This document shows positions 2,766 through 60,098 of a DNA stretch of 64,000 nucleotides, one piece after another. The first letter of the stretch is position 1. Every line of letters starts with the position of its first letter. The translations under genes and the position numbers were made by a program. Source of the DNA: an uncultured Candidatus Saccharibacteria bacterium (lineage in GTDB: Bacteria; Patescibacteriota; WWE3; UBA101185; UBA10185); contig CAYLVW010000001.1 in the NCBI GenBank assembly GCA_964387275.1, forward strand, positions 355,508 through 419,507, read 5' to 3'. The notes under the pieces were generated by a model, which did not search any database, was not told the origin of the DNA, and saw only the letters and a list, made by a program, of their open reading frames with translations.

Positions 2766-4667
2766 ATGCTTGTTTATGAATTACTAAAAAATACGAAATT
2801 TAAAAGGTTGGCTTTAACATTGCTTCTGGTTATTCCGTTTGAAGTATTGTCTCTTTTTTCGATTCATTTACCCCAGTTTATTGAGATAGCAGTTTTCAGT
2901 ATTATAATGCTTATCTTTGGTAAAAATGTAATTATTAACGGTCTAAGAAGCCTCATGCACCTAAATTTTTCTAATATAAATCTGCTAATGACAATTGCAG
3001 TATTTGGAGCTCTATATTTAGGGGAGTTAGAAGAGGCTGTTATTATTATTGTTCTTTTTGCCATAAGTGAGACATTAGAAGAGTTTGGTATTCGCAAAAG
3101 TCAAAACTCACTTGAGGAACTTGTTAAAAAAACTCCGAAAACGGCACTCATAAAAGGTCATGATGATAAAACACCTATTGAAAATATATCTGTCGGGGAG
3201 ATCCTTGTAGTAAAGCCAGGCGATTATATTCCTCTGGATTGTGTAGTTGTAGAAGGGAACTCATTAGTTGATGAGAGTACAATAACAGGCGAACCTTTAC
3301 CCAAAAGCAAATTTCCAGGTGAATTGGTATATGCAGGAACACTTAATACCCAGGGATATTTAGAAATCAGAGTTATCAAGGTTTCAAAAGATACTACTTT
3401 AGCTAAGATTGTGGAATTAACATTCCAATCTATAGAAAAAAAGTCACGTGCCACTAAATTTATTGAGAATTTTGCACTTTACTACACACCTACAATAATT
3501 GTCATTGCAACTTTACTAACAATAGTTCCTTTTTTTGTTTTCGGACAACCTTTTACTGTCTGGTTTACGCAAAGTCTTACAGTTCTGCTAATTGCGTGTC
3601 CTTGTGCTTTAGTCATTTCAACACCAATAACAATATTCTCTGCAATTGGGAATGCTACTAAAAGAGGCGCTTTAGTAAAAGGTGGTCAATTTTTAGAGGA
3701 AATGGGGAAAATAAGAGCCATAGCTTTTGATAAAACGAGAACCTTAACTAAAGGAGAGCCTCTCGTATCTGATATTGTTACTTTCGATGGGGTTTCAAAA
3801 GAAGAGCTGCTTAATTGTGTTGCCGGTGCTGAATCTCTTTCTGAACACCCTATTGCGAAAAGTATTGTTGAAAGAGCAAATACCGTAGATGGAGAAAATC
3901 ACTCATACTCAAACTTTAAATCCGTTATGGGTAAAGGTATTAGTGGGGAATGTTTAGTTTGCGTTGATAAACACCACTGCATAGGTACTTTGGAATACAT
4001 TATGGAAGAACATAAAGTTGACACCAAAGTAATAGAAATAGTTGAGAAATTTGAAAAAGAAGGTAAGACAGCGATTGTAATTAGTTCTAATAAGCACATT
4101 GAGGGAGTTATTGGTGTTACTGATACGATTAGAAGTGAAAGTAAACAAATTGTAATGGACTTAAATAAACTCGGAGTAACTTCCATCATGCTTACTGGAG
4201 ATAATGCGTCGGCAGCTGCGTATGTGTCAAAAGAAGTTGGTATTAGTGAGTTTTATGCCAAGCTTCTACCTGATGAGAAAGTTTCAAATTTATTAGAATT
4301 GGTCAGAAAATATAAAAATGTTGCGATGGTTGGAGATGGCGTGAATGATGCTCCTGCCCTTGCAACTGCTTCAGTCGGTATTGCAATGGGTGCTGTTGGA
4401 TCGGATGTAGCTATTGAAAACGCAGATATAGCATTGATGAACAATAATTTAAGCCTACTACCATTTTTGATTAGTCTTGGTAGAAAAGCTATAAGGACTA
4501 TTAAGTTAAACACTACTTTGGCAATTGGAGTAAAACTGTTTTTCCTATTTTTTGCGCTGATTGGAAAAGGTAATCTTGCCTTAGCCATATTTGCTGACGT
4601 TGGTGTTACTTTACTAGTAGTGGCAAATAGTTTGAAATTATTTAATTATGATATGGAAACAAAATAG
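2766..4667 (+). CDS. P1B-type heavy-metal translocating P-type ATPase (Cu+/Zn2+/Cd2+ type, CPC motif), without N-terminal HMA domain
   Basis: CPC in CPCALVIS of TM6, DKTRTLT phosphorylation motif, TGDN, and GDGVNDAPAL hinge. 633 aa. Confidence 0.85.
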   Translation: MLVYELLKNTKFKRLALTLLLVIPFEVLSLFSIHLPQFIEIAVFSIIMLIFGKNVIINGLRSLMHLNFSNINLLMTIAVFGALYLGELEEAVIIIVLFAISETLEEFGIRKSQNSLEELVKKTPKTALIKGHDDKTPIENISVGEILVVKPGDYIPLDCVVVEGNSLVDESTITGEPLPKSKFPGELVYAGTLNTQGYLEIRVIKVSKDTTLAKIVELTFQSIEKKSRATKFIENFALYYTPTIIVIATLLTIVPFFVFGQPFTVWFTQSLTVLLIACPCALVISTPITIFSAIGNATKRGALVKGGQFLEEMGKIRAIAFDKTRTLTKGEPLVSDIVTFDGVSKEELLNCVAGAESLSEHPIAKSIVERANTVDGENHSYSNFKSVMGKGISGECLVCVDKHHCIGTLEYIMEEHKVDTKVIEIVEKFEKEGKTAIVISSNKHIEGVIGVTDTIRSESKQIVMDLNKLGVTSIMLTGDNASAAAYVSKEVGISEFYAKLLPDEKVSNLLELVRKYKNVAMVGDGVNDAPALATASVGIAMGAVGSDVAIENADIALMNNNLSLLPFLISLGRKAIRTIKLNTTLAIGVKLFFLFFALIGKGNLALAIFADVGVTLLVVANSLKLFNYDMETK

Positions 4668-17002: not shown

Positions 17003-17719
17003 ATGAGGATTCCTATCAAGCTGGAAAGTAAACACTATGTTATTTTAGCTTTAATAGCTATTCCTTTTATCATTCTACTTAGAATCTTCTATAAATGGCT
17101 TGCTATTCCATTTGTTTTTGAGGAGTTCCTGTTTTTTAAGGGAGCTATTTGGGATCCGTTTTTGATGTCAATGCCACTAATTCTTGGAGGCATTGCTTTA
17201 AATGTTTTCCATATGGCATCTACTACAAATCCACCAGAAGTGCATGCTAATGCTGGTAGTATTCCGTTTACGGGATTTCTTACCAGTTTAATGGCAGGTG
17301 TGATGGAGGAGATTGTTTTTCGTTGGGTTTTGTTTTATGCATTTTTTGGAATGTTCTGGTTTATAGATAGAAACATTCTGGGAGGCTTCTTACAAGCTCA
17401 ATTCACAAATAATCTAAGCTTTATTAACACCTTCCTTGTTTTTGGGGCACCAGAAATGATCTCAAACCCCACTAACTGGGCAACCGGTCTTGCTATTCTT
17501 TCGTCCAACTGGAAGTTCCAAGAAGGACATTCCTACCAAGGGATTTCCGGGCAGATTTTTAGTTGGCTAGGTGGTTTGGTGTTTTTTAATGTTATGTTTG
17601 TGCATGGGCTTTTTGCAGCCATGTTGGTGCATTTTGCTTTTGACATGCTGACATTTGTAATGCTTATGGTTGATTTGTTCCTGGAGGAAAACAGTGACAA
17701 ATTCTATGCCTGGTACTAA
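17003..17719 (+). CDS. CPBP-family (CAAX protease / Abi-type) intramembrane metalloprotease
   Basis: Motif 1 EEIVFR (EExxxR), motif 2 FNVMFVHGL (FxxxH) and motif 3 HFAFD. Multi-pass membrane protein. Confidence 0.7.
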   Translation: MRIPIKLESKHYVILALIAIPFIILLRIFYKWLAIPFVFEEFLFFKGAIWDPFLMSMPLILGGIALNVFHMASTTNPPEVHANAGSIPFTGFLTSLMAGVMEEIVFRWVLFYAFFGMFWFIDRNILGGFLQAQFTNNLSFINTFLVFGAPEMISNPTNWATGLAILSSNWKFQEGHSYQGISGQIFSWLGGLVFFNVMFVHGLFAAMLVHFAFDMLTFVMLMVDLFLEENSDKFYAWY

Positions 17720-17756
17720 CAAACAAAAACCCTACAAAACAACAAGGAGGCGAAAC

Positions 17757-19019
17757 ATGGCTCGAGCAATCAAAACTGACCTTACCCAAGATCAAGCTAC
17801 TATTTTGATTGATGCAGGTAAAGCAGTTAGAGGACTTGAAGAGAATCTTAAGTTTTGCTTTCAAGAACGTGATTGGATTATCCGTCAAACAGCATTGGCG
17901 CTGCTTTTGGGCAGACACGTGCTGATTTATGGTATTCATGGTGCCGCTAAGTCTTCTTTTGCAGAACGTGTGTTTGGCTCAATTAAGGGTAAGGGTACTA
18001 GTGGTGAAGATCCTCAGATTTTTTCTATTCAACTTGATGTTGATACAACTAAATCTGATTTGGTTGGCCCTATTAGTATTGCTGATCTTAGAAATAGTGG
18101 CCTAAATGTGAGAAATCTTGCCGGCCATCTGGCCGAAGCACACTTTGCTTATTTGGATGAAGTACTTGACGCTATCTCACTTTTGAGGGGCATTAATGAT
18201 ATTCTTCATGAACGACGCCTTATTGAGGGTAGACAAAATATCCGAGTGCCGCTTCTTACAGCTATTGGTGCTACTAATAGATCACCTAGTGAGGTAGAGG
18301 CGATGTACCCGGGGCTTAATTTGGGTGCTGTTAATGATAGATGGGATTTTGTTGGTAATGTTGGGTACGTTAACGGTATTGCTAGTGTTACCAGCATGGT
18401 TATGAACGGTCTCTTTGGTAAACTCCCGTTTGTCGAAGTGCCTTTCCATCTTATTCAACAGTCCGCTCAAATTCTTGCTAACACTAATATGTTCCCAGAT
18501 GACCAATATGTCCAAGCCTATGTTGAACTTATCACCAAAGTTAGGGAACGATTTAAGAAAGACATGAAACGGTCAATTTCAGATCGTCGTATTAATAGAC
18601 TTACTCAAGTAGTTGAAGCTAATGCTATTCTTTATGGCAGAACTGATCTGACTGCTGAAGACCTCCATGCTATCGGGTATGCACTTTGCCCATCCGGCGA
18701 CTCTGATGAATATAGCGTATTTAAGGAAGTTGCTGATGGGGTCGTTGGTGAATTTGGTGCTGCGATTAATGATAAGACAGACGCAGCTATTAAAAATGCA
18801 CTTAGACGAATTAGCACAGATATTATGGGCATTAAACGAAGCCTTAGTGATCCGAAGTGGAAAGCTGATGTAACCAATGTTGGACCTGCTCTCAAACAGG
18901 TTTCAGAGCTTAAGGATGAGCTTCTTAAACTAGCTCCTAAACTTGAGTCAACTGAGCGCGAGATTAAAAAACTTGTTGATGTGCTCGCTGACCTTAAAGA
19001 CAAGATTAACGATATCTAA
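17757..19019 (+). CDS. MoxR-like AAA+ ATPase with C-terminal coiled-coil extension
   Basis: Walker A HVLIYGIHGAAKS, a MoxR-type segment QLDVDTTKSDLVGP, Walker B FAYLDEV, and sensor-2-like GRTDLTAEDLHAIG. Start chosen at the MARAIK ATG after AAGGAGG. Confidence 0.7.
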   Translation: MARAIKTDLTQDQATILIDAGKAVRGLEENLKFCFQERDWIIRQTALALLLGRHVLIYGIHGAAKSSFAERVFGSIKGKGTSGEDPQIFSIQLDVDTTKSDLVGPISIADLRNSGLNVRNLAGHLAEAHFAYLDEVLDAISLLRGINDILHERRLIEGRQNIRVPLLTAIGATNRSPSEVEAMYPGLNLGAVNDRWDFVGNVGYVNGIASVTSMVMNGLFGKLPFVEVPFHLIQQSAQILANTNMFPDDQYVQAYVELITKVRERFKKDMKRSISDRRINRLTQVVEANAILYGRTDLTAEDLHAIGYALCPSGDSDEYSVFKEVADGVVGEFGAAINDKTDAAIKNALRRISTDIMGIKRSLSDPKWKADVTNVGPALKQVSELKDELLKLAPKLESTEREIKKLVDVLADLKDKINDI

Positions 19020-20179
19020 TGGTTACTCCCTTAAACCTCGAGATTCTATATTGGGTACTGCTATTTATAGCACTACTTATCTTCTATTGGCTTTGGAACA
19101 AACTTAATAACCAATGGCAACAGGATAAATCTGAAGCAACAGGTATTGGTCAGGGAAGTGGATCCCAAGGATCTGGATCAAATTCCGGATCATCTGGTGA
19201 ATCTACAGATGGCCAAGGGCAGTCTACTAGTTCAGGTGAAAATGAGGACGATAATAAATCACTAAGTGATTACTTTGAACAGCTCAGAAAAGCACGTAAG
19301 AAATCTATGGTTGAAAAACTACGCGATGCTGCAAAAGATAAAGATTTGGCTGACTTTATTCAATCCCAAGCTGGCAAAGGCTCTAGCGACATAAGCACTT
19401 GGGATCCTGATAGAATGTATGAAGTTGCAGAAATGATAGGCGAAGATGTCTTAGACATGCTAATCACAAGTCAATCTAAACTTCCAATTAGTATGGATCT
19501 TACAAACAGAAAGAGCACTAAACTTGACGAAGTAAGATCGGGAGGAATCTTTAGGGATACAGCTAAGGTTAGAGGTCCCGAAGACTACCCAGATTTAACT
19601 ACTGAAGAATTAGCTCTTGATGACGATCATCTTTACACGAGAATCTCAACTGGAGAAGCTCGTAGGGTCCGTAGGTATGATCAAAAAGAAGAGATCGACG
19701 TTTTCGGTATGCTAAGAGATCGCTCAGGGTCAATGCAAACTAAGATGCCTCATTCGGGTGTTTCTAGAGATACATGGGCCCGTGGTGTAGTGCTAAGATT
19801 TGCAAGAGACGCAAGTAAAGGTAAAGTTAGGTTTTTCTTTAGAGATTTTGATGAAAGAGTTAAACCTATTCAAAGAGTCTATGGACCTAGTGATGTTTCA
19901 GGTTTTATTGATTATCTTGTAAGACACCCCGCTCCTGCGGATGCTGGAACTAATATCTTAAATGCTATCTCTAGAATGGTTAAAGATATTAAAGCAGATC
20001 CTTCCATAAAAATTAGAACTGCAGATATTGTTCTGATTTCGGATGGAGATGATGGTAGTGTTAGTGATGTTGATGGAGTAAGAGAGATCCTAGGTGATGT
20101 TAAGTTACACACTATCGTAATCGGCGGAAGTAATCCATATCTTAAGGCTGTTTCTACAACTTATAAGGAACTTCGCTAA
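19019..20179 (+). CDS. Membrane-anchored von Willebrand factor A (VWA) domain protein with Gly/Ser-rich low-complexity linker
   Basis: N-terminal TM helix. GSGSQGSGSNSGSSGE linker. MIDAS motif DRSGSM and downstream VLISDGDDG. Start overlaps the upstream stop (TAATGG). Confidence 0.7.
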   Translation: MVTPLNLEILYWVLLFIALLIFYWLWNKLNNQWQQDKSEATGIGQGSGSQGSGSNSGSSGESTDGQGQSTSSGENEDDNKSLSDYFEQLRKARKKSMVEKLRDAAKDKDLADFIQSQAGKGSSDISTWDPDRMYEVAEMIGEDVLDMLITSQSKLPISMDLTNRKSTKLDEVRSGGIFRDTAKVRGPEDYPDLTTEELALDDDHLYTRISTGEARRVRRYDQKEEIDVFGMLRDRSGSMQTKMPHSGVSRDTWARGVVLRFARDASKGKVRFFFRDFDERVKPIQRVYGPSDVSGFIDYLVRHPAPADAGTNILNAISRMVKDIKADPSIKIRTADIVLISDGDDGSVSDVDGVREILGDVKLHTIVIGGSNPYLKAVSTTYKELR

Positions 20180-20194
20180 CTCACATATTCTTAA

Positions 20195-20237
20195 AGCCCC
20201 ATACACCAAATTAATGGTTTATGGGGCCTTTTTTTAT
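20195..20237 (+). terminator. Rho-independent terminator
   Basis: AGCCCCATA...TATGGGGCC hairpin followed by TTTTTTT. Confidence 0.6.
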
Positions 20238-20332
20238 GTCTAATCATCGTTCAAATTCAGATTTGTTCAAATACCAACCCTATAGTATAATTTGCAAGTT
20301 CGTTGAGAACTCAATAGTGCCAAGGAGCAATT

Positions 20333-21739
20333 GTGAAAGCTGAAACCCTGCACATTAGACTAGCAAATATGGCAGCGCGATCTAGATTTATGACTGGTCT
20401 TGCTATTGTTACACTTATCGCAGCTTATCTTGGATTACATATCTTTGTCGACAGTTTTGACTGGACCTACAAGGGATATGGTTTTCTTATTTGGGCAGTT
20501 TTTCTGGTGCAATTTATATTTGCATGGGTTGTTACAGGATTTTTTGTACCTATCTTAAAGTCTCAAAAGGGAGTTCATGATATCAGTACTGTAAATGATA
20601 TGTACAGAATACGTGCAGGTAGATTGATTGACAGTGTTGCAGAAACAACGGGATATAACAAGGAAGTTCATAGACTTATTGTAAATGATACTACCCCTAA
20701 TGCGTTTGCAGCAGGCACAGGATCATCCACGTGTGTTGCGCTTAACTCAGGGCTTCTTAATATTTTGGATGACGATGAAGTAGAAGGGGTTATTGCTCAC
20801 GAATTTGGGCATCTTAAAAATAATGATATTTTCATTACGTTATTTGCTACAAGTTTGGTGGGTGCTTTTATCATTATCGGTCGCTTTATCATGAACGCGG
20901 GTATTTACAACCCTAAATCTTCCAAGAAAAATAACAGTTGGGTGTTGATTGCTCTTGGATTTGCCATTATGGCTTTTGGCTATATTTTTGCTCCTATTCT
21001 CACTGCTTTTATCAGTAGACAGCGAGAAAATCTGGCTGATCTTTATGCAAGTAGTTACGGGTATGGTGAAGGCCTTAAGAAAGCGCTGGCCAAGCTAGCT
21101 GCTTACAAGGGTAAAACTAAGCCAATTGTTGAAAATGCTGCTAGTCTTTATATCAACCAGCCTGTGACTGATTTTATTGGAAGTATATTTTCTACCCACC
21201 CCCCTATTGCAACTAGAATCAGCAATATTGATAATTTTATGAGCTCCGATGAAGGTAGGATTCCGGATACGCTTGAAAGTATTTTGAAAAGCTTTATTAC
21301 GTGGGTAGTCGTTCCTGCTACTGGTGCAATTGTAATGGCGTTTTCAGGTAAGTTTACGGATCTTTCAGGTATTTTTGGGATTCCTTATGTTTACTTGGCT
21401 TCTGTAATGTGGTTACTTGCTGTAAGCACACTGGTGGGCTCTGTGTCCACTAATTATTCTAAGTCAATATCGAATTGGATTCTCATTGCAGCTGGGTTTG
21501 TTTATCTCCTCGCATTTTGGGCAAGTGGTATGGTTGCAGTTAATCTTGGAAGCGAGTTGGGAGGTATTTTCGCAACAGTTGTTGCAACAATTATGTTTTG
21601 GGCTTGGGCAGTAAAACCAGCTACAGCAATGTTAGGACAGTATTTTGGTATTATGTCACTCGCTAGTGACTTTACGAATTACGCATCTTACATCTACGCT
21701 GTAAGCATTTTGGTGACTTTGGGGCTTAGATTCTTCTAG
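20333..21739 (+). CDS. Peptidase M48 (HtpX-like) membrane zinc metalloprotease with extended C-terminal multi-TM region
   Basis: HEFGH (HExxH) in VIAHEFGHLKNND, flanked by TM helices. GTG start after AAGGAGC. Confidence 0.7.
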   Translation: MKAETLHIRLANMAARSRFMTGLAIVTLIAAYLGLHIFVDSFDWTYKGYGFLIWAVFLVQFIFAWVVTGFFVPILKSQKGVHDISTVNDMYRIRAGRLIDSVAETTGYNKEVHRLIVNDTTPNAFAAGTGSSTCVALNSGLLNILDDDEVEGVIAHEFGHLKNNDIFITLFATSLVGAFIIIGRFIMNAGIYNPKSSKKNNSWVLIALGFAIMAFGYIFAPILTAFISRQRENLADLYASSYGYGEGLKKALAKLAAYKGKTKPIVENAASLYINQPVTDFIGSIFSTHPPIATRISNIDNFMSSDEGRIPDTLESILKSFITWVVVPATGAIVMAFSGKFTDLSGIFGIPYVYLASVMWLLAVSTLVGSVSTNYSKSISNWILIAAGFVYLLAFWASGMVAVNLGSELGGIFATVVATIMFWAWAVKPATAMLGQYFGIMSLASDFTNYASYIYAVSILVTLGLRFF

Positions 21740-23175: not shown

Positions 23176-23679
23176 ATGTTAAAAAAACCTAGAAGAATTA
23201 GCTGGGAAAAGTTTTGGTTTTTGCTATCAATGATGTACTCCTCAAGAGGTACATGCGACAGATTAAAAGTTGCGTGCTTATTGGTAAACAATAATAGGCT
23301 TGTAGGAGCAGGGTACAATGGATCACCGTCAGGATTACCTCATTGTGATGATGTGGGGCACTTGCTAATAGATGGACACTGCGAAAGAACATTGCACGCC
23401 GAGGAAAATGCAATTATTAATAGTGAGAGATCTAACATAAAAAATAGTGTCGCCTACATCACAGCTACACCTTGTATTAGATGCGCAAAATTACTTATAA
23501 ATTCAGGTGTTAAAGAAATTAAATGCCTTGGTACTTACAAAAACTCCAGAGGCAAAAATCATTTAGAAGATTTATTAAAACAAGCAAAAATCAAACTAAC
23601 TTATTCAAAGTTAAAACCACAAGAACTTATCGATAGTGCTGTGGTTTCTTTAAAATCTCAAGGCGGTTTGTTGACTTAG
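23176..23679 (+). CDS. dCMP/cytidine deaminase family zinc enzyme (ComEB-like dCMP deaminase)
   Basis: HAEENAI and PCIRCAKLL, the H(A/C)E...PCxxC zinc-binding motifs. Confidence 0.75.
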   Translation: MLKKPRRISWEKFWFLLSMMYSSRGTCDRLKVACLLVNNNRLVGAGYNGSPSGLPHCDDVGHLLIDGHCERTLHAEENAIINSERSNIKNSVAYITATPCIRCAKLLINSGVKEIKCLGTYKNSRGKNHLEDLLKQAKIKLTYSKLKPQELIDSAVVSLKSQGGLLT

Positions 23680-23714
23680 CATATTACATCAAGCACTGGT
23701 ATAATGCCCTAGTT

Positions 23715-24524
23715 ATGAAAAATTTTGATGATGTAGTAAGCAATATAAATAGATCTAGAATTAATGTGCCTGTAGACCACAACCCTTTAGTTAAAAAGGT
23801 ACTTGAACAGGTAAATTCTAATGAGGAAATTAAAACTCTCTGGCACTGTATAAATGTTAATGCAATAGATAGGTTAGAAATGACCGATCATGGGCCTGTA
23901 CATTTTCAAATAGTTTCAAACATTGCCCTTAAGCTTACAAGACTTCTAAATAAGCACTCAGTACAACTCTCTGTGGAAAAGGATCACGGTCTTTCTTATG
24001 AGCATGGGGAGCTTGTGGTTGTGCTTGCGAGTCTTTTTCATGATCTTGGTATGTCTATAAACAGAGAGGGACATGAAGAATTTAGTTTAATTGTTGCAAG
24101 CAAGATAATAGACGATGTCTTAAGCTTTATGCCTATAGTAGAAAAAACGATAGTTAAATCTGAAGCACTACATGCAATAATCAGCCACAGGTCCGGAGGC
24201 AGACCCTACACTATAGAAGCAGGAATAGTAAGAGTTGCTGACGCGCTTGACATGGCTGAAGGAAGATCCAGATTAACGTATGAGACAGGTATTGTAAATA
24301 TGCATTCACTTTCTCATGCTGCCATCGACTCTGTAGATATTGAAGAGGGAACTGAAAAACCAATTAAAATCCAAATTAATATGAATAACTCTTCAGGACT
24401 TTTTCAGGTAGATGAACTACTAAATAAAAAAGTAAGAGGATCTGGTCTTGAAAAATATATTAGTGTGAAAGCCTTAATATCAAGGGATACAGAAGAAAGC
24501 CTACTTAAGGAATTTATTTTCTAA
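23715..24524 (+). CDS. HD-domain phosphohydrolase family protein
   Basis: H...HD signature (VHFQ ... LFHDLGM). Confidence 0.5.
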   Translation: MKNFDDVVSNINRSRINVPVDHNPLVKKVLEQVNSNEEIKTLWHCINVNAIDRLEMTDHGPVHFQIVSNIALKLTRLLNKHSVQLSVEKDHGLSYEHGELVVVLASLFHDLGMSINREGHEEFSLIVASKIIDDVLSFMPIVEKTIVKSEALHAIISHRSGGRPYTIEAGIVRVADALDMAEGRSRLTYETGIVNMHSLSHAAIDSVDIEEGTEKPIKIQINMNNSSGLFQVDELLNKKVRGSGLEKYISVKALISRDTEESLLKEFIF

Positions 24525-24612
24525 AACTGTACCTACTTATCCAACCAACATAAGTTAATCCTAAAGATAGTTAACTCTGGTAGTTTTAATTAAAAACTTA
24601 TAGAATCAATTT

Positions 24613-25494
24613 ATGCCCATTAGAAATCTGTTCATGTTGCCATTTGATCACCGAGCGTCTTTTTCAAGAGATCTTCTTAAAATTACAGGTCAACTAGACT
24701 CGAATCAAACTCAAAAAATTGCAAAACTTAAGAACCTTATCTTTCTAGCCTTTCTGAATACTTATGCTAAGTATAGAAATGATAATTTTGCGATATTGGT
24801 TGACGAGCAGTTCGGTGGAGAAGTAATAAGAGGGTGCAAAGAGTTCGGAATAGAATTTGCCACATCCGTAGAAAAAAGTGGTCAAAAGATTTTTGATTTT
24901 GAATACGGCACTGATTACCAAAAACATTTAACAAAAATTAACCCTAATTATGCAAAAGTGCTTGTACGATATCACCCAGAAAATGTACAAGATAATGAAA
25001 TACAACTAAAAAGGCTGGTTGATCTGAGTACTTTTTGTGAGAAAAAGGATATAAAGCTTCTTTTTGAGCTTTTACTTAATCCAAGCGATAAAGACATCGA
25101 AAAAGCAGGCTCAAGAGAAAATTTTGACAATATGTACAGGGCGGATTTGATGAAGCAAGCGGTAAGGGAAGTAAGATCAGTACTAAAACCCACTATATGG
25201 AAACTTGAGGGAATGAATAGCCATGAAGAATGGGATAAGATCCTATCGGTCTTAAGCCCAGAAGAAAAAATAATAGTTTTAGGGAGAGGGGAAAACAAAG
25301 AAAATGTAAGCAAGTGGCTAGATATAGCTGCAAAAAAACCAAACATTGTAGGATTTGCCATAGGAAGGACAATATTTTATAACCCTCTTAAAAAATACTT
25401 AGCAAAAGAAATTAGTGAAAGCTCATGTGTGTCAGAAATAGCTAGCAATTTTGAGGAATTTATTGTTGAATGGAAAAACTTTAAGTCTCTCTAA
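24613..25494 (+). CDS. Hypothetical protein, possibly aldolase-like TIM barrel (DUF2090/LacD-like)
   Basis: N-terminal FMLPFDHR resembles the class I aldolase (LacD/DUF2090) motif. The assignment is weak. Confidence 0.3.
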   Translation: MPIRNLFMLPFDHRASFSRDLLKITGQLDSNQTQKIAKLKNLIFLAFLNTYAKYRNDNFAILVDEQFGGEVIRGCKEFGIEFATSVEKSGQKIFDFEYGTDYQKHLTKINPNYAKVLVRYHPENVQDNEIQLKRLVDLSTFCEKKDIKLLFELLLNPSDKDIEKAGSRENFDNMYRADLMKQAVREVRSVLKPTIWKLEGMNSHEEWDKILSVLSPEEKIIVLGRGENKENVSKWLDIAAKKPNIVGFAIGRTIFYNPLKKYLAKEISESSCVSEIASNFEEFIVEWKNFKSL

Positions 25495-25499
25495 ATATA

Positions 25500-27446
25500 A
25501 TGAATGATGCATTTACGGAACTATTCAAAGATGTAATAAAAGGTCTTAGGAAGTACTACCTAGTATTCTCTCTGACAATTTTACTTCTAGCCTTTTCATC
25601 AAGTTTTTATCCTGTACTAAATATACCTCTATATATTATAGTTACAGTCTTTTTGATGGGTTATTTAAGATATTCTACGATGCACAAAAAAAAGATACGA
25701 CTCTTACTAATCCTTCATCTAACTTTATTAATGTTTATTGGGCTACAAAATAGCAATACAACTATTAGTTTTTATATGTCTGGTGTGTTTTTAGTAGTTA
25801 TATATGTGGAATCAAAAATTTCTATAGTTAAATCTCCTGATGCAATATATAAACTTCTAAAAAGTAAATTTCCAGAATCTGCCAACAAATTAGTCAACTT
25901 TAAAATTGAGAATGTACTAGTGGATAAGCTAGTGAATGGAGATGTTGTTGTAGTCAATGCCGGAGAGATTATTCCAGTAGACGGTGTAATAGAAAGCGGA
26001 ACTTCTAGTGTTGATGAGTCCGGTTTAACTGGCGATTTTATCTACAAAGAGAAGTCCCCAGGCTCAGAAGTAGTAGCGGGATCTATAAATAAACTTACTA
26101 CTATACAAATAAAAATAATAAAAGATCCATCCTTATGGTTAAAAAATATAATATTATCACTTGTTTCTGAGAAACGCCCCCACGCTTATTTAATAGACAG
26201 CTTCGATAAATTATATCTGCCAAATATGCTGGTTTACATAGTAGTCACTATATTTGTAACTCTTTATGTGCTACTTGCTCTTGACAAAATACATTTAAAT
26301 TCTCTATGGTATTCGGTAATTTCATTTCCACTAGGGTTATATTTTATCTTCATATTTTCTATTGAACACTTTACTAAAGCTTTGTCAAAAGAGGGATATC
26401 AAATAAATAATTTCTACTCATTTCTGCTTTCATCCGCAACTAAATCAGTTGTTTTTGGTAAATCTGGTATCTTGGTTGATAGTGTTGCAGAAGTATTGGA
26501 AATGAAAACTTTTGACACAAAACTTCAAAGGTATACTCTAAACTCGATACTAGAAATTGTTTACGTTGTAGTAAGAAAATCGAAACATGACTATTCTGAC
26601 GCAATAATTAAGTACATAAACAATAGAGTCACAAGCGTAGATAACGAAATAAGCCTATCTGAATACAAAGAGGTAATAGGAGAGGGTATTACGTGTTATG
26701 CCGATTCTATAAAGGTTATGATTGGTAACTATAAACTCTGTGAGAATAATCTTATATTTGTTCCTATAAAAGTCAGAGAGTTTGTTGAAGAGATAGAGTC
26801 CTATAAAGGAGAAGCAGTTTTTATTGTATTTAACAAAGAAGTAGTAGCTGTGTTCGCAATTACCAATTTATCAAAATCAGAACTCTCAAGTACTATAGAT
26901 AAAATTAAAGAATATGGAATAAAAACTGTACTAATTACCGGTGATAACCAAGAAAACGCCCAAAAAATATTTAATCGATATAAACTCGAAGATTATTATT
27001 ACGGTGTAACCCCAAGAGATAAGGCAGAAAAAGTATCAGTTATAAAACAAAAATACGGTAATGGTATTACACTTGCTGTTGGTGACTCCTTTAGTGATAT
27101 AGGAGCATTAATTGAGGCTGATCTATCACTTTCTTTAAAAAGTTCGGCGGAAATTGTCCAAACAGTATCAAGTGTTATACTGCCAACAGATTCTATAGAA
27201 CGCATTGAAGAGCTGATAAATTATGGGTATTTCACAAGATACAGTATTATGAGAAACCTTTGGATTAACTTAACAGCATACCCACTTATAGTGTTCATAA
27301 GCACTATGCTTAATATAGATAGTGTATTTCCACTTTTATATAGTCTACTCACAGTCCCTGTAGCTTACTTAATCAGTTTATATACAAGCAATCTTATTAT
27401 CAAAAAACAGAACTTGACCGCAATGAACACCGCACTAAAGTCGTAG
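25500..27446 (+). CDS. P-type ATPase homolog with degenerate catalytic motifs (likely non-phosphorylatable pseudo-ATPase)
   Basis: Actuator-like domain VVNAGEIIPVDGVIESGTSSVDESGLTGDF and TGDN and GD..D-like motifs are kept. The phosphorylation site DKTGT is replaced by GKSGI. There is no CPC/APC transmembrane metal site. Confidence 0.6.
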   Translation: MNDAFTELFKDVIKGLRKYYLVFSLTILLLAFSSSFYPVLNIPLYIIVTVFLMGYLRYSTMHKKKIRLLLILHLTLLMFIGLQNSNTTISFYMSGVFLVVIYVESKISIVKSPDAIYKLLKSKFPESANKLVNFKIENVLVDKLVNGDVVVVNAGEIIPVDGVIESGTSSVDESGLTGDFIYKEKSPGSEVVAGSINKLTTIQIKIIKDPSLWLKNIILSLVSEKRPHAYLIDSFDKLYLPNMLVYIVVTIFVTLYVLLALDKIHLNSLWYSVISFPLGLYFIFIFSIEHFTKALSKEGYQINNFYSFLLSSATKSVVFGKSGILVDSVAEVLEMKTFDTKLQRYTLNSILEIVYVVVRKSKHDYSDAIIKYINNRVTSVDNEISLSEYKEVIGEGITCYADSIKVMIGNYKLCENNLIFVPIKVREFVEEIESYKGEAVFIVFNKEVVAVFAITNLSKSELSSTIDKIKEYGIKTVLITGDNQENAQKIFNRYKLEDYYYGVTPRDKAEKVSVIKQKYGNGITLAVGDSFSDIGALIEADLSLSLKSSAEIVQTVSSVILPTDSIERIEELINYGYFTRYSIMRNLWINLTAYPLIVFISTMLNIDSVFPLLYSLLTVPVAYLISLYTSNLIIKKQNLTAMNTALKS

Positions 27447-27484
27447 TTATTGACTTTAACTTAATTTTCAACGAATATAAAACT

Positions 27485-28243
27485 ATGCCTACACAAAAAA
27501 CAAAACCACTAATATTATCTAAAAGATTTCTATTTGTCTTTGCTGCTTCAGCTTTTTTGGTATGGACAATCTATGCACTAGCAGATATGAGATGGGGTAC
27601 TGTTAAACTTGGATCCGAAAAAACAATTACAGTTATAGGATCTTCATCAGAACAGCAAAATAATCAAATTGCATCTTTCACAACTACTATAACAGCAACT
27701 AATGAAGATAAATCTCTTGCATATGAGGAGGCTAATACGAGAATGAGTGACCTAATTGATTCGATAAAAGCCTTTGGAGTAGATGCAAAGGATTTGAAAA
27801 CAACCTACGTAAATGTATTTCAACAAGAAGAACCTTACTTAGAAAATGGTGTACAAAAATACAAACCAACTCAGTGGAGAGCCAGTCTTTCTCTTGAAAT
27901 AAAATTAAGAGATGTTACAAGGGTACAAGATCTCACTACTTTACTAACTGATAAAAATGCCGGCGATTTGTATGGACCAAATTATGCAACAGATGACTCT
28001 ATGAATAATGATAGTAATAATCTTATGATGTCGGCACTGGCTAATGCCAGAACTAAAGCCGAAACTATTGCAAAGTCTCAAAACACTAAAATTAAGGGAG
28101 TTCTTAGTGTAGTGGAAGGCTACAATACCTCAAATTACCCTGTTTACGGTTTAGAAAAGGCCATGGGAGGTGGTGGGTCAGGTTTTGAACCCGGCACTAC
28201 TGAAGTGTCTAAGTCTGTAACCGTAACCTACATTGTCGAGTAA
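27485..28243 (+). CDS. SIMPL/DUF541-family secreted protein (periplasmic immunogenic protein-like)
   Basis: N-terminal signal/TM helix. Internal repeat architecture and motifs resemble the SIMPL domain. Confidence 0.4.
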   Translation: MPTQKTKPLILSKRFLFVFAASAFLVWTIYALADMRWGTVKLGSEKTITVIGSSSEQQNNQIASFTTTITATNEDKSLAYEEANTRMSDLIDSIKAFGVDAKDLKTTYVNVFQQEEPYLENGVQKYKPTQWRASLSLEIKLRDVTRVQDLTTLLTDKNAGDLYGPNYATDDSMNNDSNNLMMSALANARTKAETIAKSQNTKIKGVLSVVEGYNTSNYPVYGLEKAMGGGGSGFEPGTTEVSKSVTVTYIVE

Positions 28244-28273
28244 TCGGGATGTAGTTATAGCAAACCCAACTTG

Positions 28274-28305
28274 AAAAGGGCGGGCCTACGGCCCGCCCTT
28301 TTCTT
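28274..28305. terminator. Bidirectional rho-independent terminator
   Basis: GGGCGGGCC-TAC-GGCCCGCCC hairpin flanked by A-run and T-run. Serves convergent genes 27485(+) and leuS(-). Confidence 0.7.
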
Positions 28306-28336
28306 ATCAAAAAAAAAATAGAAAAACTGCAAGAAA

Positions 28337-30775
28337 CTACTTTGTAACAAAACTCAAAATCTTACCTTGAACATAAACAACCCTTACAACAGTTCCCAAT
28401 AAAAACTTTGAAATAGCAGAATCAGATTTAGCTAAACGTACAGCCTCTTCTTCGGTTGTCGTAGGAGAAAGAGTAACAAGACCTCGAACCTTACCGTTTA
28501 CCTGAACAGCTACCTTCATAGACTCTTCCTTAAATTCATCGCCACTTAACACAGGCCAACTCTGAACATGAATACTATTTTTAGCATCCCAGATTGCATT
28601 AGAATGTAATTCCTGCCACAGATCTTCTGTAACAAAAGGCGCAAATGGTGCTAACAAAATTAAGAGCTTTTTATATGTTTTAACATTTAAACTACCTGAT
28701 GCTTTTACTATGTTGGTGAATTTCATAAACTCACTAACAGCGGTGTTCATTTTCAGGTTATCACACATATAAGTAATATTTTTAATGAGGGTATTCATAC
28801 CCCTTTCTACCTCAGCACTCTCTGCATCTGTAACCTTATCCTTTAACATATACACACTACTAACCAGCTTATAGGTTGCTTTTATACCAGAGGGATTCCA
28901 TGGATATGTATCTTCATAGGGGCCTATAAAACAAATGTATAACCTTAAAGCATCGGCACCGTAGGCATCTGCCATCTCTATTGGATCAATTATGTTACCA
29001 ATAGATTTGGACATTTTTCTGCCATCAGGGCCTAGTAACAAACCACCGGTCATTCTCCATGAATAAGGCTCTTGGGTAGGAAGTAATCCCTGATCATAAA
29101 GGAACTTATGCCAAAACCTTGAATACAATAGATGCAAGGTAATATGCTCAGACCCTCCAAAATATTTATCAACAGGCAACCAATACTCCATCTTTTTTGG
29201 GTCAGCAAACTGTTTGTCATTCTTAGGATCCAGATATCTTATATAGTACCAGCAAGATCCTGCCCAGTTTGGCATTGTATTTGTTTCTCTGGTTGCAGGA
29301 TTTCCCAATGAATCAATGGTCTGCAACCATTTACTATTTTTGGTCAGTGGGGAATTTCCATCTGCAGTAGGTGAAAAATCTGAAACATCTGGAAGAACTA
29401 ATGGCAATATTTCATTTACTTTTTCAAAATCACTTGTTTTAACTATGGCCTCTACAGTACCATCACTTTTATGTAAAACAGGAATAGGCTCACCCCAGTA
29501 TCTTTGCCTAGAAAATAACCAGTCTCGTATTTTATAAGTTACTTTTGAAAAACCTTTAGATTCCTCTTTCAACCTTTCAATAACCTTTAAGAAAAAATCA
29601 CTACTTTTAACACCATTGTATCCATGTGAATTAATCATCTGACCTGCTTCATCAATAACTGGAATAATAGGTAGCTTAGAAACAATTGCAAATTCTTTAT
29701 CTCTATCGTCGTGTGCAGGAACCCCCATAATAACCCCAGTACCATAGTCGTTTAATACATAGTCAGCAACATAAATTGGCACCGTATCCTTGCTTTCTGA
29801 AAAAGGGTGTTTAGCAACAAATCCTTTAACTTCTACACCAGTTTTTACTTTGCTAGATCTTCGTTCTAAGTCAGTCTTACTTTTTGATAACTCGATATAA
29901 GAATGTACTTCCTCCCAATTACTTATTTTTGATCTTAAACTGGATAACAAGGAGTTTTCAGGAGAAATAGCAATAAAAGATACTCCAAAAATAGTGTCAG
30001 GACGAGTAGTATAAACTTCTGCATCCTCTAACTTGGCACCGTCAGCGTCTACCAACTCAAAAGTAATCTGAGCTCCCTCACTTCTACCGATCCAATTAGT
30101 TTGTGCAGATTTAATAGATTCAGGGAAATCCACCAAACTTAAACCTTCAATAAGCTTATCTGCATATTTTGTAATTTTTAACGTCCACTGTTTAACATTT
30201 TTCCTAACCACTGGATGATTACCGCGTTCGGAAATCTTGTTACCATCCTTATCGGTAAGCACCTCTTCCTCTGCAAGAACAGTCTTGAGTTCCTCACACC
30301 ACCAAACAGGTGATTCTTTATACTCTGCAAGACCTGCTTCAAAAAACTTCAAAAACATCCATTGTGTCCATTTGTAGTAATCGGGGTTACTCGTAACAAC
30401 CTCTCTATCCCAATCAAAACCATAACCCATTCTCTTAAAAGATTCAGTATAATTTCTAATTGCTTCTTCTGTCGTAACAGACGGATGTATTCCTGTTTTT
30501 ACTGCAAAATTTTCCGCAGGTAATCCAAAGGAGTCATAGCCCATTGGAAATAACACATTGTAACCATTCATTCTAAGAAAACGGGAATAAACATCGGGCA
30601 CGGTATACCTCATCATATGCCCAGCATGCAACGCCTTACCAGAAGGGTAGGGAAACTCAGCTAAAATATATTTTTTAGGCTTACTAGAAAAATCCTCCGC
30701 CTTAAAAATATTATCCTTATACCAACCATCGGACCATTTCTTTTCAACTTTTGTGTGATCGTAAACACGAGTCAT
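28337..30775 (-). CDS. leuS: Leucyl-tRNA synthetase
   Basis: 812 aa. HIGH-type motif HAGH and KMSKS motif. Class I aaRS editing and anticodon-binding regions present. Confidence 0.95.
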   Translation of the reverse strand: MTRVYDHTKVEKKWSDGWYKDNIFKAEDFSSKPKKYILAEFPYPSGKALHAGHMMRYTVPDVYSRFLRMNGYNVLFPMGYDSFGLPAENFAVKTGIHPSVTTEEAIRNYTESFKRMGYGFDWDREVVTSNPDYYKWTQWMFLKFFEAGLAEYKESPVWWCEELKTVLAEEEVLTDKDGNKISERGNHPVVRKNVKQWTLKITKYADKLIEGLSLVDFPESIKSAQTNWIGRSEGAQITFELVDADGAKLEDAEVYTTRPDTIFGVSFIAISPENSLLSSLRSKISNWEEVHSYIELSKSKTDLERRSSKVKTGVEVKGFVAKHPFSESKDTVPIYVADYVLNDYGTGVIMGVPAHDDRDKEFAIVSKLPIIPVIDEAGQMINSHGYNGVKSSDFFLKVIERLKEESKGFSKVTYKIRDWLFSRQRYWGEPIPVLHKSDGTVEAIVKTSDFEKVNEILPLVLPDVSDFSPTADGNSPLTKNSKWLQTIDSLGNPATRETNTMPNWAGSCWYYIRYLDPKNDKQFADPKKMEYWLPVDKYFGGSEHITLHLLYSRFWHKFLYDQGLLPTQEPYSWRMTGGLLLGPDGRKMSKSIGNIIDPIEMADAYGADALRLYICFIGPYEDTYPWNPSGIKATYKLVSSVYMLKDKVTDAESAEVERGMNTLIKNITYMCDNLKMNTAVSEFMKFTNIVKASGSLNVKTYKKLLILLAPFAPFVTEDLWQELHSNAIWDAKNSIHVQSWPVLSGDEFKEESMKVAVQVNGKVRGLVTLSPTTTEEEAVRLAKSDSAISKFLLGTVVRVVYVQGKILSFVTK

Positions 30776-58459: not shown

Positions 58460-58535
58460 TGGTGGAGCAGGTGGGAGTCGAACCCACATAGCCGGTTTTT
58501 CAGACCGGTGCCGTGACCACCTTGGCTACCGCTCC
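58460..58535 (-). tRNA. tRNA-Phe (anticodon GAA), CCA encoded
   Basis: The reverse complement folds as GGAGCGG...CCGGT-CTGAAAA-ACCGG...GTGGGTTCGACTCCCAC-CTGCTCC-A-CCA. An extended -10 TGGTATAAT lies upstream on the minus strand at about 58553-58561. Confidence 0.8.
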
Positions 58536-58697: not shown

Positions 58698-60098
58698 TTA
58701 CTCTGCGCTAGAAAGGAAAAGGCTAAGATCCGGGATCAACACGCGATCCAAGACACCAATATCCTGACCAAACACAGACATAGCCGTATCTCTATCCGCA
58801 TACTTAAGCCTCATTGCAGCAAGGTAGTAACTAAGACCACTGCCTTTACCAGGCTCATAGGCATAGTAAAAACCCGTATTGTATTGCCCAGACCCCATAA
58901 CAGCAAGCAGATTGCTGGCAGTAACAACATTGTCGTAAGTAACATCACCAATGGTGACAAATCTTACACCACCGCCGTCACCAATATCAATAACGTCCTC
59001 GCTAGTGGACTGAGTAATACTTCCGATATCCCCAATACCATGAACAGCAAGAATGACGTCATCGTATGCACCACGCCTAAGACCTGCATACAAAGTAGCA
59101 GGGTTATCGGCATACTCTCTGGTACTCAGAAGGTCAGCGGTGACCTTATTATCAGTAAAGATATAAAGCGCACTACCCACCGGTGAAACCTTAGACGACA
59201 AAATCACCAAATAGTAAGTCTTGTCTCCAAGCAGCCAAGTAACATTGCTCAATGCACCATCACCAATGAAAGAGGTATTGGGCTGCCTGCCCCAAAAGTT
59301 CCTATACTCAAACATAATAGAGCCGTAAGCGTTTCCACCTTGGTACAACTTCATTCCGGTCTGCCGACCAATGAACTCTGAAAGTGAGTCCTGATCAACA
59401 CCCTTGAAGTTAGGCACAATATTAGTGCTCATGGCTGAAGACAGTAAGTCTCTTACCTGCACAGCAGGAGTACCGTTAGCTTCCCAGAAACCCCATTCCA
59501 AGTAGTCTCTTGGGAGGATACTCTCAAAATTCTCAGTCCAAATCGCATAGCCACCTAGATCCAACTCTCTTCGTCCAGGACCCCACTTCTCAACATATTG
59601 AATTTGAGTGAGTTTCAGAGTGTCCCCAACACGGTTGTAGATCAAAAAAACATTGGATCTATCAATAACATACCCAGTATAACCAGGACGAAGCTGGAAA
59701 AGACTCGCACTCTCAAACCGAGCGTTAATCATACCTGCGATATCATTCTCGTTAAAATCCTGATAATAAATGATATCCAGCTCGGAATTATCCCAAGCTC
59801 CCCATTTAACAGACTGCATAGTGCCTTTAACAAAAGTCGAGTCGGGATAAAAGACTGTCCCAACCTCAGTAGCTGTTTCACCAGCGCCGTCGCCATTTTC
59901 ACGATAAGCGACATCAAAAGTAGGTGAAGTAATAGACATAATCTGGCTATCACCAACCTTAAGCTGAGAAATAGTCATAATGTTCTTACCTCCAACAGGA
60001 GGAGGAACAGGAACGTTTCCCTCAACAAAAAGGCTACACGAGGTAAGAGTAAGGCTCAAAACGGTAGCAAACACTGCCTTCAAGCGATGTGATTTCAT
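58698..60098 (-). CDS. Large secreted lipoprotein-like hypothetical protein
   Basis: Signal peptide with lipobox-like LTSC. 466 aa. Confidence 0.4.
   Translation of the reverse strand: MKSHRLKAVFATVLSLTLTSCSLFVEGNVPVPPPVGGKNIMTISQLKVGDSQIMSITSPTFDVAYRENGDGAGETATEVGTVFYPDSTFVKGTMQSVKWGAWDNSELDIIYYQDFNENDIAGMINARFESASLFQLRPGYTGYVIDRSNVFLIYNRVGDTLKLTQIQYVEKWGPGRRELDLGGYAIWTENFESILPRDYLEWGFWEANGTPAVQVRDLLSSAMSTNIVPNFKGVDQDSLSEFIGRQTGMKLYQGGNAYGSIMFEYRNFWGRQPNTSFIGDGALSNVTWLLGDKTYYLVILSSKVSPVGSALYIFTDNKVTADLLSTREYADNPATLYAGLRRGAYDDVILAVHGIGDIGSITQSTSEDVIDIGDGGGVRFVTIGDVTYDNVVTASNLLAVMGSGQYNTGFYYAYEPGKGSGLSYYLAAMRLKYADRDTAMSVFGQDIGVLDRVLIPDLSLFLSSAE

Follow-up and report, generated by a model that had tools for sequence, protein, structure and literature searches.

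P-type ATPases are defined by their aspartyl-phosphate, and the locus described here raises the question of what a member of this superfamily can be once the phosphorylated residue is gone. The locus lies in a 64,000-nucleotide stretch of DNA (hereafter the window) from an uncultured Candidatus Saccharibacteria bacterium (contig CAYLVW010000001.1, positions 355,508 to 419,507 of the forward strand), in which a complete, uninterrupted open reading frame (ORF) with an ATG start (25500-27446, plus strand) encodes a 648-residue protein, designated P0001, that is related to heavy-metal pumps of the P1B class and has Gly at the position of the phosphorylated Asp. The reading that is favored here, with a probability of roughly 0.6, is that this is not a broken gene, and that the protein is a lineage-restricted pseudo-enzyme that descends from a heavy-metal P1B-ATPase, has kept the whole pump fold and has been retained by selection. 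A single ortholog, designated P0061, is known from an independent contig (L002), and its residues are given below beside those of the window protein.

Family and architecture of the protein

A preliminary description of this DNA, made from the letters alone, had reported a 648-residue ORF with P-type ATPase architecture. This was borne out by the ORF itself, by family models, by an AlphaFold2 model and by Foldseek, and the strings that had been quoted from the protein (VVNAGEIIPVDGVIESGTSSVDESGLTGDF, VVFGKSGILV, TGDN, and GDSFSD) are all present. Two Pfam families match above their cutoffs, E1-E2_ATPase (PF00122; 8.8e-25, 87.7 bits) and the haloacid dehalogenase (HAD)-type Hydrolase family (PF00702; 1.2e-14, 55.6 bits), and a Pfam scan gave no match to the heavy-metal-associated (HMA) metal-binding domain (PF00403). 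The top NCBIfam model is the P1B heavy-metal model TIGR01525, for which the protein scores 241.1 bits and so falls below the curated cutoff of 346.25, as it also does for TIGR01511 (163.7 vs. 397) and TIGR01512 (152.7 vs. 313.5); the only NCBIfam cutoff that it clears is that of the generic P-type model TIGR01494 (118.5 vs. 62.3 bits). Its best sequence matches among solved structures, found with HMMER, are those of CopA (3e-36; Archaeoglobus fulgidus, 3j08). The protein is thus a member of the P-type ATPase superfamily and is of class P1B by descent.

The AlphaFold2 model, built from a 48-sequence alignment, has a mean predicted local distance difference test (pLDDT) score of 80.3 and a predicted template modeling score of 0.73, with the headpiece at about 85-95 and the membrane helices at about 60-75 pLDDT. 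Eight long helices occupy the MA, MB, and M1-M6 positions (residues 2-33, 38-63, 68-81, 88-123, 227-260, 266-297, 567-603, and 611-647), together with the A, P, and N domains. On the DNA, the four N-terminal helices MA, MB, M1, and M2, which are indicated both by the AlphaFold secondary structure and by hydropathy, correspond to residues 2-123 (25503-25868), followed by the actuator (A) domain (residues 124-226; 25869-26177), helices M3-M4 (residues 227-297; 26178-26390), the P domain with its inserted N domain (residues 298-566; 26391-27197), and helices M5-M6 (residues 567-647; 27198-27440), all on the plus strand. Foldseek comparison with the PDB returned P-type ATPases exclusively, the best being ZntA (4umw and 4umv; TM-score 0.69-0.75), ATP7B at a TM-score of about 0.7, and CopA, with E2-like states giving the best fits. 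Structure prediction, which had been proposed as a check, therefore returned the full P1B fold with its P and N domains, and the architecture as modeled is that of a complete P1B pump.

Loss of catalytic residues

Motifs were placed by a residue-level HMMER alignment to CopA of A. fulgidus (3j08), with which MAFFT alignments agree. At the position of the phosphorylation motif DKTGT the protein reads GKSGI (residues 320-324; 26457-26471), so that, as previously described, the phosphorylated Asp is replaced by Gly. The codon of residue 320 is GGT, and it is also GGT in the ortholog, which reads GDTLL. The actuator motif TGE (SGE in CopA of A. fulgidus) is TGD (residues 177-179; 26028-26036), with the substitution E179D, and is RSQ in the ortholog. 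The hinge motif GDGxND (GDGIND in the same CopA) is GDSFSD (residues 528-533; 27081-27098), in which D529 and D533 are kept in both orthologs, G530S is common to both, and Asn532 is lost in both, being Ser in the window protein and Thr in P0061. The altered actuator (TGDF in place of TGES) and the GDS..D hinge had been pointed out before, and both are confirmed at the homologous positions. In the N domain, SKHD (residues 361-364; 26580-26591) stands in place of SEHP, with the His kept and the Glu and Pro lost, and the ortholog has SKSE, having lost the His as well. TGDN (residues 480-483; 26937-26948) is retained and is TSGN in the ortholog. A search of all six frames of 24000-29000 found no DKTGT-like motif elsewhere in the region.

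To gauge the extent of degeneration, 201 functional P1B relatives were aligned, and the 43 columns with ≥90% conservation among them were compared. These references keep a median of 42 of the columns and a minimum of 29, and another P1B pump encoded in the window (2766-4667, see below) keeps 40. The window protein keeps 25 and its ortholog 16. Since 25 lies below the reference minimum, its degeneration as read from this alignment is far outside the normal range of the family. Lost are E179, C276, P285, D320, T322, T324, T326, D456 (replaced by Asn), G530, and N532; kept are P277, G323, H363, G394 and G396 (as GEG), G481-D482, K508, D529, and D533.

The phosphorylated Asp and the actuator Glu are each present in 100% of the 201 references, and both are missing here. 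In P-type ATPases, as in HAD proteins generally, the mechanism needs the Asp of motif I as the nucleophile; the Asp of DKTGT is essential for the E1P/E2P cycle, and the Glu of TGE is needed for dephosphorylation. Because the former is Gly and the latter is Asp, the protein is in all probability unable to run the phospho-enzyme (Post-Albers) cycle, and with Gly320 at motif I it lacks the nucleophilic Asp by which HAD-superfamily phosphotransferases are recognized.

Could it still be an active ATPase or phosphatase that uses non-canonical chemistry, for example a different carboxylate nucleophile? HAD motifs II-IV are kept in part (T480, K508, D529, D533), as are the N-domain His and GxG, and the ortholog has an Asp one residue past the canonical position (FGDT). 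This Asp, however, is not conserved, being Lys in the window protein; neither ortholog has the TGE motif, the threonines of DKTGT, D456, or N532; P0061 is also without TGDN, the His, and one Gly of GxG; and HAD and P-type chemistry depends on the motif-I Asp itself as the nucleophile. Alternative catalysis is hence highly improbable. Binding of phosphate or of a nucleotide by the headpiece, without turnover, is conceivable because T480, K508, D529, and D533 are kept in both orthologs.

Loss of the membrane metal site

The preliminary description had found no CPC, APC, or SPC motif in the membrane domain, and the position of the M4 CPC motif is indeed occupied by FPL (residues 276-278; 26325-26333), with the helix-breaking Pro (P277) retained; the ortholog has FPI. 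Neither the CopA-type YN and MxxSS ligands nor equivalents of the K/DxG and HEGxT signatures were found in M5-M6 of the window protein, and the M4-M6 core of the two orthologs contains no conserved acidic, Cys, His, or Met ligand. Binding of a soft metal in the membrane is thus not to be expected, because CPC has become FPL and the YN and MxxSS ligands are gone. Given Gly and Asp at the two catalytic sites and the lack of thiol, thioether, and imidazole ligands in M4-M6, we infer with high confidence that ATP-driven metal pumping by this protein is excluded in practice.

The sole two cysteines of the 648 residues lie in the N domain, C399 in GITC (26694-26696) and C414 in NYKLC (26739-26741). 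Both are kept in the ortholog (C398 and C413); at these positions, Ala and Met predominate among functional pumps. A disulfide between the two would be possible, as would a small site for a metal or for redox chemistry.

An ortholog with the same substitution

Whether the protein is an isolated casualty or a conserved form depends on its relatives. When 1.84 billion representatives were searched exhaustively with HMMER, one match of ortholog grade, P0061, was obtained at 397 bits, the next match scoring 171 bits. P0061 has 629 residues, is 36% identical to the window protein over its full length, and is encoded at 7634-9523 of L002, a 19-kb contig from an independent sample (SRR29476910). The two loci have the same gene order, HD, DUF2090, the pseudo-pump, SIMPL, leucyl-tRNA synthetase (LeuRS, opposite strand), DsbA, tRNA-guanine transglycosylase (TGT, opposite strand), TP_methylase, and UvrD. 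The region of the phosphorylation site in P0061 reads CFGDTLL, and the derived states common to both proteins are D320G, C276F, P285I, G530S, G549S, A553V, and G615S. Because P0061 has Gly (GGT) at the phosphorylation site and these other derived losses are shared, the inactivation predates the split of the two carrier lineages. P0061 has decayed further in its RSQ, its TSGN, and its loss of the N-domain His and of one GxG glycine, so that the two proteins no longer agree in their nucleotide-binding residues, and it scores only 98.9 bits on TIGR01525 against the cutoff of 346.25. It had been proposed that orthologs be examined for the same substitutions; the sole ortholog found is syntenic and shares the Gly, which points to conservation rather than decay. 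By an operational definition of a pseudoenzyme, the protein is a homolog of an active family without the essential residues, and the loss is common to an ortholog and accompanied by purifying selection, as judged from a single ortholog pair.

An error of sequencing or assembly, or a wrongly called frame, would be another way to arrive at a P-type ATPase without its Asp. Nothing specific speaks for it, except that the Logan assembly L001, which has the identical sequence, may share reads with the NCBI contig. Against it stand that identity, the ortholog from an independent sample, in which the GGT codon and the derived residues recur, and a degeneration that extends over 18 of the 43 near-invariant columns rather than a single base. 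Its likelihood is practically negligible.

The way in which the ortholog was found bears on how searches for such proteins are to be read. Word-indexed homolog searches, with the window protein or with the two-member alignment as query, returned beyond P0001 itself only ordinary DKTGT pumps at ≤27% identity and missed P0061 even where the query alignment contained it, so that negatives of this kind do not equal absence for fast-evolving families. A scan of metagenome contigs with the family alignment gave no new members, only three ordinary P1B pumps that are nearer to the other pump of the window than to the pseudo-pump. Three further candidates for pseudo-pumps (P0067, P0114, and P0175) were rejected, as they keep the Asp in DKTAT or DKTRT.

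Selection and the location of constraint

The pseudo-pump is 36% identical between the two genomes and its eight neighboring genes are 53-80% identical. In each of the nine syntenic genes, synonymous sites have reached saturation, with synonymous differences per site (pS) of 0.70-0.86, and nonsynonymous differences per site (pN) were thus compared with pS in place of the ratio of substitution rates (dN/dS). For the pseudo-pump pN is 0.43 vs. a pS of 0.78, and this pN is 1.4-3.3 times that of the neighbors (0.13-0.30). Both ORFs are intact and only 27 gap columns separate them, where about 8% of random A+T-rich codons would be stops and the chance of 648 open codons would be about 5e-24. A pN that falls well short of pS, together with two intact ORFs, indicates purifying selection: the constraint appears relaxed but real, and the gene has very likely been retained by selection.

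Where this constraint lies is unusual. In working pumps, conservation is highest in the P-domain motifs. Between the two orthologs, identity is highest in M3-M4 (53%) and M5-M6 (49%), followed by the N domain (41%), the N-terminal part of the P domain (37%), the N-terminal helices (34.5%), the A domain (29%, mostly ancestral residues of the fold), and the C-terminal part of the P domain (25%). As judged from this one pair, conservation is inverted relative to a working pump. Residues that are identical in both orthologs and are found in <5% of functional pumps were counted as clade-specific; they amount to 25 per 100 residues in M3-M4, 22 in M5-M6, and 3.4 in the A domain, and in M4 they are changes from small to bulky side chains (C276F, G281Y, L282F, T284F, P285I, and T286F). 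They cluster in M4-M6, and most of them put an aromatic side chain in place of a small one. Stretches that are nearly invariant between the orthologs are FP[LI]GLYF[IV]FIFS, RN[LI]WINLTAYPL[IV]VFI (in M5-M6), ID[SH]FDKLYL, and IGNYK.CE...KVREF. The concentration of clade-specific residues and near-invariant stretches in the membrane core indicates that this core was remodeled and then held, that is, a new constraint beyond residual conservation.

Two further explanations must be weighed at this point. One is that the gene is a functionless relic, inactivated and drifting, which by chance is still uninterrupted in both genomes. In favor of this, it is the fastest gene of its block, its catalytic motifs decay independently in the two lineages, it has only two carriers with outgroups that are without the gene, and its ortholog scores low on the P1B model. 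Set against this are a pN of 0.43 despite the saturated pS, the intact ORFs with few gaps in a composition that would readily generate stop codons, the long near-identical stretches, and the concentration of shared derived residues in the transmembrane core. The reduced genomes of the candidate phyla radiation (CPR) are, moreover, generally thought to delete useless DNA fast. A relic is therefore improbable.

The other explanation is an ATP-independent facilitator or channel, either a passive pathway or a carrier whose new substrate would not be a metal and might be hydrophobic; the new binding site would lie in the remodeled M4-M6, and the headpiece could serve at most as a gate. A selected new membrane site is expected to be where conservation and clade-specific residues peak, as they do in M3-M6; the helix-unwinding Pro of M4 (P277) is kept in both orthologs; and T480, K508, D529, and D533, present in both, make a ligand-gated headpiece conceivable. 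However, the residues at the former ion site are now bulky aromatics and aliphatics (F276, Y281, F282, F284, I285, and F286), which would fill a pathway rather than open it, M4-M6 is without a conserved acidic, Cys, His, or Met ligand, and the nucleotide-binding residues differ between the orthologs. We also know of no P-type ATPase that acts naturally as a passive carrier. Such a function is unlikely, and of the roles suggested by the preliminary description (regulatory or scaffolding partner, or channel-like protein) the channel-like one looks the weakest.

A proposed role as a retained, non-catalytic membrane protein

The favored reading, a selectively retained pseudo-enzyme, would involve the following course of events. 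Inactivation would have occurred before the split of the two carriers and would have been followed by retention under purifying selection. Selection would have shifted off the catalytic headpiece, which would then drift differently in each lineage, and would now act on the remodeled, aromatic-rich membrane core of M3-M6 and on part of the N domain. The product would be an integral membrane protein that does not pump, and its gene is probably expressed together with the HD, DUF2090, and SIMPL genes. The preliminary description had likewise regarded the protein as a catalytically dead relative of P-type ATPases, and its view is supported by the syntenic ortholog with Gly, the common losses, a pN below pS, and the intact ORFs.

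What such a protein might do is a more tentative matter. Constraint on the aromatic membrane core and on a patch of the N domain at residues 408-432, together with drift of the catalytic pocket, favors a non-transporting membrane partner, structural or regulatory, that would act through its transmembrane core, a role to which somewhat less than an even chance is given. A bolder and doubtful proposal is that this is the first selected family of P-type pseudo-enzymes in prokaryotes, in which the scaffold would have been repurposed for an ATP-independent role in CPR episymbiosis through its aromatic membrane core, such as sensing or binding of a hydrophobic or membrane ligand or regulation of a partner, with the inert headpiece as a platform for interactions or ligands (T480, K508, D529, D533, and the Cys pair).

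Several points weigh against the favored reading or parts of it. The known family consists of two metagenomic sequences and the case for selection rests on one saturated pairwise comparison, and a gene that is the fastest-evolving of its block would also fit weak or fading constraint. The TGDN, K508, D529, D533, H363, and GxG retained in the window protein make nucleotide or phosphate binding conceivable. The alignment of M5 is ambiguous, HMMER pairing Y594-P595 with the YN of CopA and MAFFT pairing N590 with its Asn. CopA sequences are abundant in databases and long-branch effects are at work, both of which confound the CopA-type ancestry proposed below. As for the genomic context, promoter and terminator scans of the block gave results that were overall at chance level, and no linkage of DUF2090 to ATPase, HD, or SIMPL genes is conserved in 80 loci of other genomes, because of which guilt by association provides no lead.

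Ancestry and host lineage

The intact CPC-type pump that had been noted at 2766-4667 (plus strand) is indeed a full-scoring P1B pump (556 bits on TIGR01525) with CPC, although its phosphorylation motif is DKTRT and not DKTGT; with Lys in M5 and DxG in M6 it is of the P1B-2 (Zn/Cd-like) type. DKTRT also occurs in the unrelated match P0114 and may mark a subfamily. In this resident pump, the GxG of the N domain is followed by an insert rich in Cys and His, GECLVCVDKHHC, and there is no HMA domain at the N terminus. The possibility that the pseudo-pump is a recent duplicate of it was rejected, as the two are 28% identical at 107.5 bits, which places the resident pump at rank 150 of 151 matches, and the best external match, of CopA type, scores 171 bits. 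Among the 148 closest functional relatives 101, including the top four, are of CopA type by their CPC, YN, and MxxSS signatures. The ancestor was tentatively a CopA-type Cu+ pump rather than the resident Zn/Cd-type paralog.

The LeuRS of the window is 68% identical to that of L002 and about 60% identical to its next relatives, with named matches to "Patescibacteria group" and WWE3. The host of the pseudo-pump belongs to a sparsely sampled lineage of Patescibacteria.

Gene neighborhood

The pseudo-pump is the third gene of a block that spans 23715-28243 (plus strand) in the window and 5928-10326 in L002. It begins with the gene for an HD-domain protein (23715-24524), which is 80% identical in L002, followed by that for a DUF2090 protein (24613-25494) that ends 5 nt before the start of the pseudo-pump and is similar to IolJ-type and tagatose-bisphosphate-type class I aldolases. 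The gene that begins 38 nt downstream of the pseudo-pump (27485-28243) encodes a SIMPL (DUF541) protein with an N-terminal hydrophobic anchor and a weak resemblance to YggE. The intergenic gaps in this order are 88, 5, and 38 nt in the window and 12 nt, a 4-nt overlap, and 41 nt in L002, and the four genes are probably co-transcribed. The best promoter-like site, with 10 of 12 matches and an extended TG, lies just upstream of the HD gene (23676-23705, plus strand) and is a possible start of the four-gene unit. None of the four proteins matched the defence models of PADLOC.

In three outgroup contigs anchored on LeuRS (L086, L087, and L088), the flank with UvrD, TP_methylase, TGT, L33, and LeuRS is syntenic and the four-gene block is missing, its place being taken by CTP synthase plus SLT or by an MFS transporter. 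The block is specific to the clade of the two genomes.

Other features of the window

Upstream of a T2SSE pilus ATPase encoded on the opposite strand, a plus-strand run of genes (17003-21739) encodes a 238-residue protein without a Pfam match on record, a MoxR-type AAA+ ATPase (17670-19019; bpMoxR, AAA_5, and AAA_lid_8), a 386-residue protein without a Pfam match (19019-20179), and an M48 peptidase (20333-21739), and this run may be a MoxR-associated system. The segment 58001-60000 has a G+C content of 0.43, compared to about 0.35 in the rest of the window, and a negative GC skew; the rise coincides with a 466-residue ORF on the minus strand (58698-60098) that adjoins a tRNA gene (58463-58535). 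Nine single tRNA genes are scattered across the 64 kb, and no rRNA is present in the window.

Comparison with known systems

Conservation of a dead pump would mean that a non-catalytic function in the membrane can be borne by the P1B scaffold, and would amount to a natural experiment that tells which parts of the fold are needed once the catalytic cycle is gone. As domain-based annotation labels such proteins as heavy-metal pumps, inventories of metal resistance in CPR and other metagenomes can over-count transporters. The impact is limited by a tiny distribution, that is, two metagenomic sequences.

The window protein shares with the CopA-type P1B-1 Cu(I)-ATPases (A. fulgidus, 3j08, 3j09, and 7r0g; Legionella pneumophila, 3rfu and 4bbj) the topology of eight transmembrane helices and the A, P, and N headpiece, as well as the Pro of M4, TGDN, the conserved Lys, the equivalents of D529 and D533, the N-domain His, and GxG. 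Unlike these pumps, it has Gly for the phosphorylated Asp, TGD, FPL, and an aromatic-rich M4, and is without YN, MxxSS, and an HMA domain. The ZntA-type P1B-2 Zn/Cd/Pb-ATPases (Shigella sonnei, 4umv and 4umw) provide its best structural match, and it resembles the resident paralog in length and in having no N-terminal HMA domain; in contrast to both, it has neither the M5 Lys and M6 DxG signatures nor the catalytic Asp.

A second P1B relative without the Asp, P0060, is encoded on a high-GC contig (L089, 8001-10151). It has GKTAL for DKTGT, SGN for TGE, IPC for CPC, and GDDVTD for GDGxND, is distant from the window protein (59.8 bits), and keeps SSHP, ATPT, and the normal character of M5 and M6. 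It looks like an independent and more recent inactivation. Its gene divergently adjoins a CusS/CusR-type two-component system, with two resolvase genes nearby. Dead relatives of copper pumps may recur in metal-resistance islands.

In a literature search that covered, among other work, a 2023 review of the field's open questions, no stand-alone pseudo-P-type ATPase of prokaryotes was found described, and stand-alone members that lack the Asp and yet persist are essentially undescribed there. The nearest precedent for a retained P-type module without the Asp is the flippase module of the P4-ATPase-guanylate cyclases of alveolates. In Cryptosporidium, GC-beta, gregarines, and Tetrahymena, the Asp of DKTGT and the Glu of LDGET are altered in modules that are nonetheless kept and are reported to be essential, and a modified or lost ATPase activity and a supporting role have been raised for them (PMC13466520), while the modules of Toxoplasma gondii and PfGC-alpha keep the Asp (PMC6592433). 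These alveolate and stramenopile modules are eukaryotic P4 flippases fused to a cyclase, whereas the window protein is a stand-alone prokaryotic derivative of a P1B pump with no fused effector domain.

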